DNA of 32,000 bases from Thermoprotei archaeon. GTDB taxonomy: Archaea; Thermoproteota; Thermoprotei; Gearchaeales; WAQG01. Positions 6,398 through 13,006 of the stretch are shown piece after piece (position 1 is the first letter of the stretch; each line of letters begins with the position of its first letter). The notes under the pieces were generated by a model, which was given only the letters and a program-made list of their open reading frames with translations, was not told the DNA's origin and made no database searches. Where the stretch lies: NCBI GenBank assembly GCA_038881895.1, contig JAVZOV010000002.1:316397-348396 (forward strand). The letters run 5' to 3'. Both the position numbers and the translations under genes were made by a program.

Positions 6398-8050
6398 TTA
6401 ATCTTTTTCCTCTTCTTCCTTCTTCTCTTTTTCTGGACCTTTTTCAGCCTTGCTTATCTTGGATGCAGCTATTATATCGTCTATTCTTAGAATCGTTGCA
6501 GCCGCTTCAGTGGCAGAACTTACTGCTTGTATCTTAACTGATGCAGGTTCAATAACACCTAGTTTCTCCATATCATCAATTTTGCTCGTGTATCCATTAA
6601 TTCCATATGACACGTTGCCTTGCTCGTGTGCTGTTTTTAGTTCTGCTAATGCATCTATTGGATCACCGCCAGCATTCTCAGCGAGGGCTCTTGGGATTGC
6701 TTCTACTCCTTTTGCAAATGCTTCAATAGCTAATTGTTCTCGTCCACCGACAGTTGATGCGTATTTTCTCAATGTCTTACTTATCTCAATTTCTATTGCT
6801 CCACCACCATATACAACTCTTGGATCCTCTATTACATCTGATACTACACTCAGTGCATCGATAATTGATCTCTCTGCCTCATCGACTAATCTTTCGAGTC
6901 CACCCCTTATCAATATGCTTACTGATTTTGGATTCTTGCAACCTTCCACAAATACCATTTTGTCGCCTGCAACGCGTCGTTCTTCCACTAATGCTGCTTC
7001 TCCTAAGTCTTCTGGTGTCAAATCTTCAATGTTTGTAACTATTTTACCACCTGTGGCAAGAGCCAGTTTTTCCATATCAGATTTCTTCGCTCGTCGTACA
7101 GCCAGAATGCCTACTTTAGCTAAATGATGTTGCGCTATATCATCAATACCTTTTTGGCAAACGACAACGTTAGCACCGGTAGACTTTATTTTGTCTACCA
7201 TGTTTCTTAGCATTCGCTCTTCTTCATCCAAAAATGCTTTCATTTGCTCTGGATTTGATATTCTAATTTCTGCATCAATCTCAGTTTTCTCTATTTCTAA
7301 CGGAGCATCTATTAATGCAATCTTAGCATTAGTAACTTTTTTAGGCATACCTGGGTGCACAACCTCTTTATCAACTATTACTCCATAAACTAATGCTGTG
7401 TCTAGCAATCCTCCACCCTGTTTTTTGATTAACTGTATCTTATTTATGTCGGCAATTCTCTTCCCGTTCCGTTCTTCTGCTATTGCTTTAACAGCTTTCA
7501 CGCATATGTCTGCAAGGTGTTCTTTGACTGAAGAAACTGATTTACCATGTATTGATGTCAATGCTACTTTTTTAAGTATTTCATCATCATCAATGTTTAC
7601 TTTTATTGCTAATGAGTCAATAACTTCTCTAGTTTTAATTTCGGCTTTTCTATATCCGCTAACTATGACTGTCGGATGCACGTTTTTATCGATGAGCTCT
7701 TCAGCTTCTTTTAGTAGCTGACCTGCTATTACAACTGAAGTTGTTGTGCCATCTCCAACTTCATCATCCTGAGTTTTTGCTATTTGAACTAATAATTTTG
7801 CTGCAGGATGTTGAACCTCTATTTCGTTAAGTATTGTAGCACCATCATTTGTAATAGTTATGTCACCAATTGTATCAATAAGCATCTTATCCATACCTCT
7901 GGGTCCTAATGATGATTTTACAGTTTCCGCTACTGCCATTGCAGCAGTTATATTGGCTCGTAATGCATCGTAACCAGTTGTTCTTTGCGTTCCTTCCTTG
8001 AGTATTAATACAGGAACCGCTGATGTACCACCCGAAGGCACACTTGCCAT
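6398..8050 (-). CDS. ths: Thermosome subunit (group II chaperonin)
   Basis: Hallmark motifs [34 protein letters not shown]. 550 aa with an acidic/lysine-rich C-terminal tail. Confidence 0.97.
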
Positions 8051-9177: not shown

Positions 9178-9267
9178 GAACAGTAAATAAACTAATTTTT
9201 ATTAGATTGTTAATTTTAAAGCAAAAACCTTATTTTTAGCGAATATTCCTTTTTTAGTGGTGATAGT

Positions 9268-9483
9268 ATGGGAAAAATTCGTACACGTATGATAAAGAGG
9301 ATCGCGTTGAGGTTGCTAGAGTTATATCCAGATCAATTTACTACTGACTTTGAGAAAAACAAAAAATTTCTTAAAGAAAAATTCGGGTCTATAATGTACT
9401 CAAAAAAGATAATGAACAAAATTGCAGGTTATATTACAAGTCGTGTGGATATTAAAGAGAGAGATAAAGAATTATCACTTTAG
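9268..9483 (+). CDS. rps17e: Ribosomal protein S17e (eS17)
   Basis: MGKIRTRMIKRIALRLLELYPDQFTTDFEKNKK is the characteristic eS17 N-terminus. 71 aa. Confidence 0.9.
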   Translation: MGKIRTRMIKRIALRLLELYPDQFTTDFEKNKKFLKEKFGSIMYSKKIMNKIAGYITSRVDIKERDKELSL

Positions 9484-9512
9484 TCACAGCTATTTAAAGA
9501 TTTTTAAGAATA

Positions 9513-9821
9513 TTATCCTCCGTGTACTACGGAAATTATTGTGATAGTGTCGTTATTTTTAAGTGGAGTGCTAAGGTACTGTAAAAGTCTGTAATCAACT
9601 TTATTTATTAATATGATTATGTCAGATTCTATCTCGTTATTCTTAAACAGTCTTTCTTTGAACGATGCGTTTTTCGTTTTTACTAGTTTTTCTAGAAGAT
9701 TTTTTAGTGTTGAGTTTTCTGGGATTTGGATTATTTCATGTTTTGTACCTGCTAGGGCTCCTATTACACCATAGTATTCTATCTTAATTGTTATCTCATT
9801 GATATTCATAACATGCTTCAT
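9513..9821 (-). CDS. MoaD/ThiS-family beta-grasp small protein with C-terminal Gly-Gly (sulfur carrier / ubiquitin-like modifier)
   Basis: About 100 aa, ending in NNDTITIISVVHGG-stop, which matches the MoaD/ThiS/SAMP C-terminal pattern (D-x-V-x-I-x-P-P-V-S-G-G-like). Overlaps the upstream gene stop. Confidence 0.65.
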   Translation of the reverse strand: MKHVMNINEITIKIEYYGVIGALAGTKHEIIQIPENSTLKNLLEKLVKTKNASFKERLFKNNEIESDIIILINKVDYRLLQYLSTPLKNNDTITIISVVHGG

Positions 9822-10602
9822 CTTTTACCTCATTTTCATAAATACATGGCCTTGGTATATATTTAACTAGTCTATTAGAAAGCTGCTTGGTCACTAATGC
9901 TTCAAGCGAGGAAAAATCTTTATTATTTTTTAATAATTCTAAATCAATGTTTACATTATATACCCTGGCTGGAAATACATGACATGTTGATTTGTGTGGA
10001 AAAAGTTGATTCTTGAGAGCGTTTTCTTTTACGTCTTGTTTAGAAATATTTTTACCAGTAAAAAATAACATATTAGGTTTAATTATCGATGATCCCAATA
10101 ATAGGGAATCTTCTCTAATGTATTGGATTGTTTTTTTCATTTGTACTAGTTCATTTTCAATCAATCTTACTATTTTATAACTTTGTAGGGAATCAATTTC
10201 TTTATTATTAATAAAAATTTCATCACTATATAGCATTACTAATTTTACACTGTTTTTTACTTTTTCAAAGATGTTTTTGCTTATTTTTTCGAGTCTAAAT
10301 TTGGATGCTAATCGTACTACTATTTCTCTATCTTTTATTTCTGATGAGCGCCACCACCGTAATATTTTTATTGATGGATCGTCGTATGAAACATAAATAA
10401 CCGGTATAAATTTTAATCCTAGTATAAAAGCAACTTTGTGTCTGTGCATTCCATCAAGTATTATGTTTGTTTGTTTATCTACGATTATAGGATGTCTGAA
10501 CATTTTATTTTGGCTAACTTGGTTCATCAAGTTTGTTACCATTTCTGGTATTGTTTCTTCGTGAGGTTTTAGAGCAGAGATTGGAGCTATAGAGACTTCC
10601 AT
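9796..10602 (-). CDS. ParB/Srx-fold domain protein (possible free serine kinase SerK-like enzyme)
   Basis: N-terminus ISALKPHEETIP...HPIIVDKQTNIILDGMHRHKVAFILGLKFIPV matches the ParB-N/sulfiredoxin-fold signature (DGxHR). The ORF track starts at a TTG at 10638; I prefer the ATG at 10602 (MEVSIAPISALKPHEE). Confidence 0.6.
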   Translation of the reverse strand: MEVSIAPISALKPHEETIPEMVTNLMNQVSQNKMFRHPIIVDKQTNIILDGMHRHKVAFILGLKFIPVIYVSYDDPSIKILRWWRSSEIKDREIVVRLASKFRLEKISKNIFEKVKNSVKLVMLYSDEIFINNKEIDSLQSYKIVRLIENELVQMKKTIQYIREDSLLLGSSIIKPNMLFFTGKNISKQDVKENALKNQLFPHKSTCHVFPARVYNVNIDLELLKNNKDFSSLEALVTKQLSNRLVKYIPRPCIYENEVKDEACYEYQ

Positions 10603-10656
10603 TATAAAACCATTGTGATCCAAAACATGAGGCGACAATCATAACCACCTCTTAAT

Positions 10657-10717
10657 GGGGTCAGTGGAGGTGCATTCACCCATATTGTATCGGTGCAGAT
10701 CAGTCACGTCATCCCCC
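10657..10717 (-). ncRNA. Candidate small RNA (box C/D-like), tentative
   Basis: 61-nt GC-rich island in an AT-rich spacer. The minus strand reads GGGGGAUGACGUGACUGAUCUGCACCGAUACAAUAUGGGUGAAUGCACCUCCACUGACCCC. It has complementary GGGG/CCCC termini and a perfect box D (CUGA) next to the 3' stem. A degenerate C-like box (AUGACGU or GUGA-C-UGA) lies near the 5' stem, and a CCGA D'-like element follows 12 nt after it. Confidence 0.3.
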
Positions 10718-10759
10718 AAGAGAAATATAATAAATGATTATAAAAAGTTTAATGAAAGA

Positions 10760-13006
10760 TCACAGTTCATGTGATGTTCGTTCTATGACAGAAAGTCTAG
10801 TGTCGTCATCAGATATAAATTGATAACCATTCTCTACATTCGCATAATAAATTAAATATTTGCCTCTAGCACCGCATACAGGACATGTTTTCTGGATTCC
10901 GACACTTAATCTTTTGCATGCCATACAAAAAACAAAATTTTTGTTATATTGAAGTATGTTAACATTATAGGATGGGAATGTTCTGGATAAGTGATTCATT
11001 ATTGTTTCTGGTGATGAAATTTCGTCATCTAACCATACTTTTACGGCGTGACCACCAGATAAAAATGGATCTACTTCTGAATCTAAAGTTATTAAGTCTT
11101 GTATATCAATAATTCTCCATTCTTCTATTAATCCATTCGAATATTTTCCAGGCTTTGTTCTTGTCATTAGTATACTGTAGTATTTTGGATAGAGTTTTCT
11201 GTCCAGCATTGAAAATCTGTATGCCGGTTCGTCTCTTATATTTTGGGCAAGTAGTATTTTTAAACTCTCTTGTTCGGAGTATTCTCTAATAATTTTGTTA
11301 ATCTCGTTGAGTATTTTAATTAACAACGATCGCGATGATGGTGTGGAAAAATAATCGTGATCTGTTAAAAGAAGTATTGCTTCATACAAACCAATTGGTG
11401 TGATTATATGGAAGATATTATCATTATTTATGTATAATGTTCCCTTATATTCATGTAATGTGTAGGGTAAAGTCTCATTTTTTATCATTAATTCTAGCAA
11501 GTTATTCTTAGATGCAGCAATTTTTACAGCAGACCTTATTATATCTCCAATAAAGTTTGGTAATGTATTTTCATTTAAATCACTTTTCATAACTAACCTA
11601 GGCATATTGATTGCTGTAACCGATGCTATGTCATATTGTGAGGAATCATAATGAGAAAGTGCAACTCTATAAAGATCATTAGTGTAAATAGTATCCAGTA
11701 ATGATGACCTCAGCTTATTAATAAAAGTAACCGTATAACCTGATAAATTAAGTTTTATTGCATTCATCAGATTATTTTTTGAATCATCACTCAGAGATTC
11801 TACATAAACATGTATGATTGGAAGAATAGGAGGCCTACCATTAGAATTAAGTTGCAATAGTGCATTAATGAACGCATTAAAAACACGGTGAGCCTCATCA
11901 ATATATTCATTAAGAGTATGAATTGTACCATTTATTTTGATCTCCAGATTTTCGAATCCCTTAGGTAGATCTGTATGTAAACCTAAAGATACTGTTAATT
12001 TGTTTCTCCATATGAATACATTATTTATGTTATAAATAAAGTGAATAAAATATGTTACTAGTTCGTTATCAGGAATATTTTTTGTATAAGGAGCTAATAA
12101 GAAATTGAATAATGGTAATGATTGGCCACCAGAAACTTCCTGATCAAAGTTATATAGCATATACATAATTCTCATTAACGCATTATTAAGAGACTTCATT
12201 CCATTTGATGGTAAAAAAAGATTCATATCATCAAATTTATAGTTTAATAGTATGTACATGTCATGATTTATATTAACAGTAGACAATGACCACTCATCAA
12301 GATCTATAACATGTAAATCACCAGAGGAGTGTGCATCTGAAAGATCTTTAGAAAGAAGTCTTAATAATGTGTAGTCTCTAAGCATTGATGAACTAAGTTT
12401 ATAGTGTATGAGCCTAGGGTTCTTTATTTTTCTTTCATTACCAAATATTATCTGATGCACATCATGAACTGGTAAACCTAACCTCATGACCTGTAGGCGA
12501 ACGTCATCTAATCCTCTTTCAACAAGAATAGAATTCACCAGCTCTCTTATGAATGCAGATGTGAGATATTTTATAGGCATTTTGCTAAGTCTGAGCTCTG
12601 CTTCTCTTGCTATATCCTCTGCAAGACTCCTCGGCAATTTTGCCTCTTTAATTAATGAGCTAACAATTTTTTGAGCATCAAACGGTTCTAATGCTGGTCT
12701 CGATGTTCTTACAAGAAGTTTTGAATACTTAATTGAGTATTCTATTTCATTAATAAGCTCTAAGATTTTGCGTCCTAATCCTGTCAATATATATTCTCCT
12801 GTCTCTAAATCTTTATCGATTAATCCATGAGACTGTAACATTCTTATATGATAACTTAAGTTGCTTGTTTCTTCCTGTCGCAAATGGAGTTTTTCTTTTA
12901 TTTCAGAGAAACGTAAAGATCCATATGAACCTAACAACTTAAGTATCTCAATGCGCTTCCCTTCACTAACAATCCCAAATATGTTATATTCAATATGCCA
13001 CGGCAT
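10760..13006 (-). CDS. wHTH (ArsR-like) + ATP-cone + class III ribonucleotide reductase (NrdD)-like protein lacking catalytic cysteines
   Basis: N-terminus RIEILKLLGSYGSLRFSEIKEKL...LSYHIRMLQSHGLI (winged helix). LLVRTSRPALEPFDAQKIVSSLIKEA...FIRELVNSILVERG (ATP-cone). DAHSSGDLHVIDLDEW (NrdD-type motif). C-terminal ribbon CMAC-x10-CPVC. Only 4 Cys in the whole protein, all in the ribbon. Confidence 0.75.
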   Translation of the reverse strand: MPWHIEYNIFGIVSEGKRIEILKLLGSYGSLRFSEIKEKLHLRQEETSNLSYHIRMLQSHGLIDKDLETGEYILTGLGRKILELINEIEYSIKYSKLLVRTSRPALEPFDAQKIVSSLIKEAKLPRSLAEDIAREAELRLSKMPIKYLTSAFIRELVNSILVERGLDDVRLQVMRLGLPVHDVHQIIFGNERKIKNPRLIHYKLSSSMLRDYTLLRLLSKDLSDAHSSGDLHVIDLDEWSLSTVNINHDMYILLNYKFDDMNLFLPSNGMKSLNNALMRIMYMLYNFDQEVSGGQSLPLFNFLLAPYTKNIPDNELVTYFIHFIYNINNVFIWRNKLTVSLGLHTDLPKGFENLEIKINGTIHTLNEYIDEAHRVFNAFINALLQLNSNGRPPILPIIHVYVESLSDDSKNNLMNAIKLNLSGYTVTFINKLRSSLLDTIYTNDLYRVALSHYDSSQYDIASVTAINMPRLVMKSDLNENTLPNFIGDIIRSAVKIAASKNNLLELMIKNETLPYTLHEYKGTLYINNDNIFHIITPIGLYEAILLLTDHDYFSTPSSRSLLIKILNEINKIIREYSEQESLKILLAQNIRDEPAYRFSMLDRKLYPKYYSILMTRTKPGKYSNGLIEEWRIIDIQDLITLDSEVDPFLSGGHAVKVWLDDEISSPETIMNHLSRTFPSYNVNILQYNKNFVFCMACKRLSVGIQKTCPVCGARGKYLIYYANVENGYQFISDDDTRLSVIERTSHEL

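Follow-up and report, generated by a model that had tools for sequence, protein, structure and literature searches.

In the 32,000-nucleotide (nt) stretch of a Thermoprotei genome analyzed here, a gene for a long-form kinase-like protein of the SerK/SbnI family overlaps a gene for an Urm1-type sulfur carrier. The window, meaning this whole stretch, is G000:C2:316397-348396, and its source genome comprises 1.75 Mb and is 97% complete (G, C and L numbers denote genomes, contigs and loci; f and g numbers denote families and genera). We found that the kinase-Urm1 operon is widespread among Thermoproteota. It is apparently undescribed, and text searches of the literature returned no paper describing a SerK-like gene beside Urm1. 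The known part is Urm1 in its described neighborhood, and the new part is an uncharacterized subfamily within a known kinase family. Also new here are the rooted distribution of the linkage, the serine and cysteine contexts of nested family members, a residue comparison with true SerKs and an inventory of the genome. In the reading that we prefer, with a probability of about 0.4, the products of the two genes meet in sulfur amino acid chemistry. The pair and its junction were located as follows (aa, amino acids).

9796-10638, minus strand: long-form SerK/SbnI-family kinase-like gene, 280 aa from TTG at 10638 or 268 aa from an inner ATG at 10602 (open reading frame list, profile and structure matches)
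9513-9821, minus strand: Urm1-type beta-grasp sulfur carrier/modifier gene, 102 aa, C-terminus VVHGG (ISVVHGG) (open reading frame list, Pfam and PDB matches)
9796-9831, minus strand: overlap of the two genes (26 nt) and Shine-Dalgarno-like GAGGT of the carrier gene (9831-9827) (sequence reading)

An earlier note on this DNA had described a gene with a ParB-N/Srx signature overlapping a gene for a GG-terminated beta-grasp protein. Both open reading frames (ORFs), the motifs ISALKPHEE and LDGMHRH in the kinase-like ORF, the VVHGG end of the carrier and the overlap were seen again. The kinase stop codon (9798-9796) lies 26 nt inside the carrier ORF, and the carrier ATG at 9821 is preceded at 5 nt by the GAGGT on the minus strand. 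Overlap and GAGGT imply that translation of the two genes is coupled, as far as can be read from the sequence. The TTG at 10638 is itself preceded at 6 nt by GAGGTGG (10651-10645, minus strand). G001 and metagenome locus L102 both conserve the peptide SPH(V/I)L.H.GFIME upstream of the inner ATG, so the 280-aa form starting at this TTG is the likelier product. As the earlier note had also stated, no genes for an E1-type activating enzyme (E1), a JAMM protease or a PALP-type (CysK/M) enzyme were found inside the window. A profile search of the genome placed all ThiF, Prok-JAB and PALP matches outside it.

Conservation of the pair was assessed in 80 metagenome loci and 13 genome loci, 89 of which contain a full-length kinase gene; a downstream ORF was available in 84 of these. 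In 60 of the 84 informative loci, the kinase gene was immediately followed by the carrier gene in the same orientation. Since gene order and overlap recur to this extent elsewhere, the pair is no chance arrangement. Among the roughly 58 complete carriers in paired loci, 53 end in [AVS]HGG and overlap the kinase gene, usually by 4 or 8 nt (range in related loci, 4 to 47 nt). Of the 79 loci having an upstream ORF, 31 had the gene for ribosomal protein eS17 immediately before the kinase gene in the same orientation. All 11 kinase loci in families f1 and f2, of the window's order, have the overlapping carrier directly downstream, and in f2 a stop/start overlap also joins eS17 to the start of the kinase gene. 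In 20 further genome loci, the carrier was directly downstream in f20 (3 of 4), f31, f35, f46, f47, f51, f53 and f61, and one gene away in f54. Together with f1 and f2, the operon spans at least 11 GTDB families of Thermoproteota, counting f54, where the carrier is nearby. The pairing that the earlier note had seen in a single stretch is thus conserved across genomes.

Roughly 90 of 401 genomes of the phylum contain a full-length long-form gene. None was detected (E<=1e-20/1e-25) in three large families, namely f13 (0/56; the largest one sampled), f4 (0/23) and f18 (0/17), or in the Sulfolobus acidocaldarius control. A quick IQ-TREE analysis yielded a carrier-linked group of 68 rows, 59 of them with the carrier, versus a 22-row group in which the kinase is mostly followed by a 500- to 590-aa protein with winged helix-turn-helix (wHTH) and ATP-cone parts. 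When a FastTree phylogeny (read for its topology) was rooted on true SerKs, the long family formed one clade. Urm1 linkage was spread over this whole clade and the other contexts were nested in it, so the linkage looks ancestral for the long subfamily.

The relationship of the kinase-like protein to SerK and SbnI was supported by profiles, structures and alignment. A phmmer search of the PDB gave full-length matches to Pyrococcus furiosus 1vk1 and Thermococcus kodakarensis SerK 5x0b. The NCBIfam SerK model (NF053625) aligned at model positions 19-243 of 244, and the NCBIfam SbnI model (NF033589) matched the N-domain. An AlphaFold2 (AF2) model built on 26 homologues reached a predicted local distance difference test score (pLDDT) of 94.2. 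Its best Foldseek matches were SerK and SbnI structures (5x0g, 5x0k, 5x0b, 1vk1, 5uje and 6nr6) with template modeling (TM) scores of 0.6-0.79 and E values of 1e-15 to 1e-17 over about 230-267 columns. Glu15 of the query aligns with the residue mutated in the E30Q entry 5x0j (and in the E30A entry) of T. kodakarensis SerK. Residues E15, D50, G51, H53 and R54 are invariant across 26 family members and nine SerKs; in the long family, H14, K188, K204, T206 and H208 are invariant as well. Sixteen positions that are invariant in the nine SerKs are kept in the long family (H14, E15, E16, P38, D50, G51, H53, R54, Y73, W83, K188, K204, T206, R207, H208 and P211). The two-domain fold and the retained catalytic Glu bear out the SerK-like assignment made in the earlier note and mark the protein as SerK/SbnI-type.

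Alternatively, the protein could have no metabolic role and be a ParB that partitions chromosomes or plasmids, or a ParB-like nuclease. This alternative is suggested by a sub-threshold Pfam ParB_N match (14.3 bits; cut-off, 26.3), a weak TIGR00180 match and the name 'ParB-like nuclease domain' borne by some members. We rejected it on fold and regard it as very improbable: partition ParBs (TM score of about 0.25), like Noc and sulfiredoxin, match the N-domain only, in contrast to the full-length matches of SerK and SbnI. In addition, the kinase-like protein has no HTH, and there is no ParA among the neighbors. The earlier note had considered its idea untenable if active-site residues were lost or if the protein grouped with partition or nuclease ParBs; the residues are kept, and SerK and SbnI are matched over both domains.

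Equivalence to SerK itself did not survive the comparison. The protein scored 52.5 bits against the SerK model, versus an equivalog cut-off of 380; true SerKs score 394-458 bits. For comparison, a single family of the phylum supplied nine SerKs, true or near-true, with 295-458 bits; six of them exceeded the cut-off. These proteins have 250-259 aa, and eight of their nine loci adjoin a gene for a SerA-like protein of about 310-320 aa, as read from its N-terminal sequence alone; SerK genes beside SerA-like genes are an already published arrangement. The long family carries about 45 extra C-terminal residues relative to true SerKs. Six further SerK-invariant positions are replaced in it: D56, K69, H76, T106, P109 and R210 (L183 numbering) became R/K, T/S, M/T, R, R and T/G, respectively. 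The long subfamily comprises 1304 representatives (50% identity clusters) at E<=1e-3 and 398 at E<=1e-10. Its members, mostly of 260-300 aa, are named 'hypothetical protein' in most cases or 'ParB-like nuclease domain'. By these criteria of sequence, the kinase-like protein is a member of a separate, unannotated long subfamily and no equivalog or orthologue of SerK. It is probably an active small-molecule kinase of the serine/phosphoserine type.

This activity is expected mainly because of the gene contexts of nested members. In f22, the kinase gene is convergent with a gene for a SerA-like 2-hydroxyacid dehydrogenase, and a class-V aminotransferase gene is nearby in one of two loci (L247). 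In f38, it and a CysK-type gene are divergently oriented, and in f5 and f11, a true ApgM phosphoglycerate mutase is encoded downstream. In L241 (G278:C56:12000-20424; f50), one strand carries at 157-7787 genes for a ThrC-like protein, a MoaD-type carrier (ending in AVSGG), an E1, a CysK/M-like enzyme, a second E1 and the long kinase. The CysK/M-like gene is split between two frames, and convergent SufS-like and NifU-like genes follow. L241 is the only locus found in which a long kinase lies inside a sulfur-transfer cluster, and its carrier is of the MoaD type, unlike the Urm1 of the window. Taken together, these contexts, which comprise serine, phosphoserine, 3-phosphoglycerate and sulfur transfer, favor a serine/phosphoserine-type kinase for the whole subfamily.

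The carrier matched Pfam Urm1 (PF09138) with 45.5 bits (cut-off, 21.8) and ThiS with 39.5 bits (cut-off, 22.5). Its NCBIfam matches were below cut-off (Urm1_like, 42.1 bits versus 70; moaD_arch and SAMP1 likewise). PDB matches included MoaD, mouse Urm1 and, weakly (25 bits), Sulfolobus Urm1 4wwm. These results agree with the earlier description of a GG-terminated beta-grasp protein of the MoaD/ThiS/Urm1 type. In Sulfolobales, the Urm1-like gene is accompanied by eS17, a small protein gene, a gene for a SSO0283-type HerA-like ATPase and a divergent thermosome gene (Makarova & Koonin 2010, PMC2948915), and Urm1 of S. islandicus ends in H81-G-G. Two genes of this neighborhood were found near the pair in the window.

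9268-9483, plus strand: gene for ribosomal protein eS17, convergent with the operon (Pfam Ribosomal_S17e)
6398-8050, minus strand: gene for a thermosome subunit, part of the conserved Urm1 neighborhood and present in 23 of 34 representative loci

In these 34 loci, thermosome, eS17 and Fap7-like genes recur around the kinase-carrier pair. The Pfam match, the HGG end and the published eS17/thermosome neighborhood indicate that the carrier is the archaeal counterpart of Urm1; by position and sequence, it is very probably the orthologue (arCOG00540). It is not a dedicated CysO-like carrier. The earlier note had also offered a SAMP-like modifier with an unrelated ParB-like neighbor, and of this alternative the modifier part stands, whereas the unrelatedness is weakened by the wide conservation of the coupling. 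Two observations concern Urm1-like genes of other loci. Those of f4 genus g7 (L079, L080, L084, L085, L087, L088, L092, L095 and L098) end in AYIHPG instead of HGG, which is unusual for a Gly-Gly carrier. At L074:1498-2920 (G040), the Urm1-like gene is overlapped by an upstream gene for a class-V aminotransferase (AGXT/BhcA-like), and the long SerK-like gene is on another contig.

Genes of the sulfur and cysteine pathways are present elsewhere in the source genome, as the search for E1, CysM/O-acetylserine sulfhydrylase and JAMM genes proposed in the earlier note revealed. The inventory comprises one ThiF-type E1 (C1:31243-31950), two JAMM-like genes, one CysK/M-like gene (C1:59082-60122; 280 bits to TIGR01136, below cut-off) and two NcsA-like genes for PP-loop ATP_bind_3 proteins of the tRNA thiolase type. 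Orthologues of the CysK/M-like gene were present in g1, g4 and g5. Four other ThiS/MoaD-type genes each have their own context. The first stands between a gene for a ThrC-like pyridoxal phosphate (PLP) enzyme and the only ThiF E1 gene; this row with its SAMP1/MoaD-type carrier (G000:C1, L020:3926-6530, minus strand) resembles the MetM/MetO/MoeZ layout for thiocarboxylate-dependent homocysteine synthesis (PMC13759103). The second lies beside genes whose size and position suggest the MoaE/MoeA type, the third beside a 609-aa gene for an aldehyde:ferredoxin oxidoreductase according to its N-terminus, and the fourth is free-standing.

Shorter relatives of the kinase were found near cysteine genes. 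On contig C3 (G000:C3, L021:4573-7692, minus strand), a short SerK-like protein of 211 aa, with a wHTH and a ParB/Srx N-domain, is encoded directly upstream of a cystathionine beta-synthase (CBS) gene (TIGR01137, 580 bits) and a cystathionine gamma-lyase (CGL)-type gene. It may be a phosphoserine supplier or a regulator of this operon. A short form also precedes CysK in G028. In the Bathyarchaeales protein P0168 (575 aa), a SerK-like N-domain is naturally fused to a CysM/CysK-type PLP enzyme; the long-form C-domain is absent, and open frames of 585-597 aa resembling it are located at G316:C2:128871-129119 and G354:C3:29769-30029. Read from its domains, P0168 is a Rosetta-stone link between the SerK kinase superfamily and cysteine synthases. 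A protein atlas lead to a Chloroflexota fusion of the kinase fold with a 2-hydroxyacid dehydrogenase was not confirmed; the search among longer proteins gave P0168 only.

Two other roles for a kinase of this type were considered in view of the genome. Supply of phosphoserine to tRNA-dependent cysteine synthesis was rejected, since neither SepRS nor SepCysS was above noise in the genome. A substitute homoserine kinase serving the ThrC-like/MetM-like enzyme is unlikely, since a ThrB homologue is present (167.4 bits; cut-off, 168.25) and adjoins a PALP gene, presumably ThrC.

In the reading that we prefer, the conserved operon, with two genes in the window and three (eS17, kinase and Urm1) in most relatives, would encode a catalytically competent long-subfamily SerK/SbnI kinase. 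This enzyme would use a nucleoside triphosphate or ADP to phosphorylate free L-serine or a similar small hydroxy acid, yielding O-phosphoserine. The single ThiF-type E1 would adenylate Urm1 and convert its C-terminus to a thiocarboxylate. An unlinked CysK/CysM-type PLP enzyme would then receive its activated carbon skeleton as O-phosphoserine and its sulfur from Urm1-thiocarboxylate. Judged by gene context, this route is plausible and the most attractive mechanism. Direct biochemical coupling through the two compounds is a real possibility that we hold tentatively. More doubtful is the stronger proposal that the long kinase is the dedicated, ancestral partner of Urm1, with O-phosphoserine or another phosphorylated acceptor reacting with Urm1-thiocarboxylate. 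The carrier-dependent cysteine route of the earlier note remains a candidate: component genes in the genome and conservation of the pair speak for it, but no linked CysM, E1 or JAMM gene was found in the window or in the 93 long-kinase loci, and the carrier is of the Urm1 type.

The following features lie upstream of the kinase gene.

10760-13006, minus strand: gene for a protein with wHTH, ATP-cone and NrdD-like parts, a recurrent neighbor of the kinase-like gene in the window's order (Pfam NRDD, ATP-cone and HTH_5)
10657-10717, minus strand: C/D-box-like RNA candidate of 61 nt between the NrdD-like and kinase genes, with a TATA-like box at 10746-10738

The only Cys residues of the NrdD-like protein are the four of its zinc ribbon. 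Lacking a catalytic cysteine, it cannot work as a class III reductase; a class II reductase is encoded elsewhere in the genome. Homologues adjoin the kinase-carrier pair in f2. In f5, f7, f9, f10 and f11, the kinase gene is followed by the gene for the 500- to 590-aa protein mentioned above, which shares only the wHTH and ATP-cone part with the NrdD-like protein (hhalign probability, 69%). An AF2 model of this partner had a pLDDT of 77 and no Foldseek match in the PDB at E<=0.001, and a search of the protein atlas was empty. In L058-L064 and L067 (e.g., L062:6929-10740), wHTH and ATP-cone are central in the kinase partner, and its other domains are unknown. The 61-nt element is identical at 57 of 61 positions in G001 and L102, where the flanking spacer varies and the kinase protein of L102 is 58% identical. 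An Rfam search of positions 9200-11000 gave no match. According to its position, the element may head the kinase-Urm1 transcript.

Several findings weigh against a joint role of kinase and Urm1 in sulfur amino acid chemistry. PALP, E1, JAMM and cystathionine lyase genes were absent from the 93 long-kinase loci (602 kb), and the 20 further genome loci contained only two exceptions with a linked PLP enzyme, E1 or JAMM gene (L232 and L241). In four genomes of f2 genus g3 that have the pair, two of them at least 91% complete, a search for the CysK/M orthologue (this orthologue only) was negative at E<=1e-40. The short SerK-like/CBS/CGL and ThrC-like/carrier/E1 modules could cover thiocarboxylate-dependent sulfur amino acid synthesis without the pair. 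The replacement of six SerK-invariant positions, three of them by Arg/Lys, indicates that the substrate may not be serine, and members of the window's clade have Cys in place of R207 in the K-S-T-R-H motif. Either gene can also occur by itself: Urm1 lacks the kinase in f4 and f8, where it stands in another context, and kinase genes without Urm1 exist as well. Furthermore, the long form was undetected in f4 and f13 and in S. acidocaldarius, whose Urm1 has been characterized. Finally, the operon lies inside a conserved housekeeping block, in which gene order can persist without a pathway link. The absence of linked sulfur-pathway enzymes from the 602 kb of loci and the separate occurrence of either gene would also fit cotranscription without shared chemistry, in which the kinase would serve serine/3-phosphoglycerate metabolism and Urm1 only tRNA 2-thiolation and urmylation, both genes having settled in an old eS17/thermosome/Fap7 block. 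The eS17-Urm1-thermosome neighborhood is older than the kinase and in Sulfolobales lacks it (PMC2948915), the block genes recur around the pair, and the SerA-like and ApgM contexts suggest carbon rather than sulfur metabolism. On the other hand, the start/stop overlap with Urm1 is kept among kinases that are only 25-30% identical, despite rearrangements that moved eS17 and the NrdD-like gene, and kinase genes away from Urm1 are sometimes found beside genes for CysK-type enzymes and E1. Cotranscription alone is a serious contender at less than even odds.

The kinase could also act on the Urm1 system itself. Sulfiredoxin is a ParB/Srx-fold enzyme that phosphorylates a protein oxyanion, and in the same fashion the kinase might phosphorylate the C-terminal carboxylate of Urm1, Urm1 at another site or urmylation targets, thereby controlling activation or conjugation. 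The fold common to both proteins (Foldseek), the tight and widespread translational coupling to Urm1 and the Arg/Lys residues that the long family, unlike SerK, conserves at positions 36, 82 and 85 and that would be fitting for an anionic substrate or a macromolecule are compatible with this idea. However, the position of the catalytic Cys of sulfiredoxin is occupied by Met (DGMHR), the Glu that typically acts as general base in phosphorylation of hydroxyl groups is invariant, and members without an Urm1 neighbor keep identical motifs and the C-terminal extension. There is also no sign that E1 is replaced: a ThiF E1 was found in 59 of 61 related genomes, including every pair carrier. We consider an action on Urm1 improbable. 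Replacement of E1 by a kinase-type activator was rejected on the same ThiF count, and a sulfiredoxin-like repair enzyme because the Cys of G-C-H-R is absent from the D-G-M-H-R motif (M/T across the family). A nucleotide-binding switch or coregulator, acting with the adjacent wHTH and ATP-cone protein (a dead NrdD) and reminiscent of the regulator role of SbnI, has an outside chance. The wHTH and ATP-cone protein is the immediate neighbor in f1, f2, f5, f7, f9, f10 and f11, and NCBIfam calls SbnI a bifunctional regulator/kinase. In a 2025 survey of the ParB-CTPase fold (PMC12704722), SerK appears solely as an outlier that binds ATP, and CTP rather than ATP was reported as the ligand of one archaeal SerK-like protein. 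Against a switch, the catalytic residue set is invariant in full, ATP-cone genes are absent up to a distance of three genes in the large soil clade and in many families, and a regulator beside a metabolic gene under its control is the ordinary reading of such a neighborhood.

Prokaryotic sulfur carriers are considered to be linked to the ubiquitin-like modifiers of eukaryotes through Urm1, whose biology in archaea is, to our knowledge, documented only for Sulfolobales and haloarchaea. A SerK/SbnI-family kinase coupled to Urm1 in at least 11 families of Thermoproteota is a candidate for a missing partner or substrate supplier of Urm1. If the proposed phosphoserine and thiocarboxylate chemistry is correct, an Urm1-dependent route to cysteine or protein-bound sulfur would exist in TACK (Thaumarchaeota, Aigarchaeota, Crenarchaeota and Korarchaeota) archaea, and the eukaryote-like Urm1 system would be tied to primary sulfur assimilation, beyond tRNA thiolation and urmylation. 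With the large unannotated subfamily defined here (about 1300 representative clusters at 50% identity), the range of free-serine kinases would reach far past Thermococcales and Desulfurococcales, a point relevant to how many archaea make cysteine. If the genes are only cotranscribed, a widespread gene family has at least gained a useful annotation.

Among the known systems, SerK (T. kodakarensis TK0378, 5X0B; P. furiosus 1VK1) has in common with the window protein the two-domain architecture of a ParB/Srx N-domain and a SerK C-domain, the catalytic Glu in KPHE, the DGxHR motif, W and Y of the linker strand and the C-domain motif K..K-x-T-R-H-x-x-P. The two differ in sequence (about 22-24% identity) and context, since true SerKs adjoin SerA-like genes, not Urm1. 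SbnI (5UJE, 6NR6), the serine kinase/regulator of staphyloferrin B synthesis, gave the highest TM scores of all PDB matches (0.71-0.79, whole length) and is the precedent for a kinase of this family feeding O-phosphoserine to a CysK-family PLP enzyme, SbnA. It is bacterial, has no Urm1 partner, shares 15-18% identity and is detectable by sequence in the N-domain only. The Sulfolobales Urm1 locus (arCOG00540, eS17, arCOG07188 and SSO0283-type ATPase; Saci_0669, SiRe_1713, 4WWM) has an HGG-ended carrier beside eS17 and thermosome genes, as in the window, but no SerK-like gene. For the proposed chemistry, the closest counterparts are CysO/CysM/Mec of Mycobacterium tuberculosis and the analogous MetO/MetM/MoeZ, in which an O-phospho-amino acid and a carrier thiocarboxylate are joined by a PLP enzyme. 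The window carrier differs in being of the Urm1 type instead of a CysO/ThiS type assigned to an adjacent enzyme. Genes for all component types of this chemistry are nevertheless present in the genome of the window.

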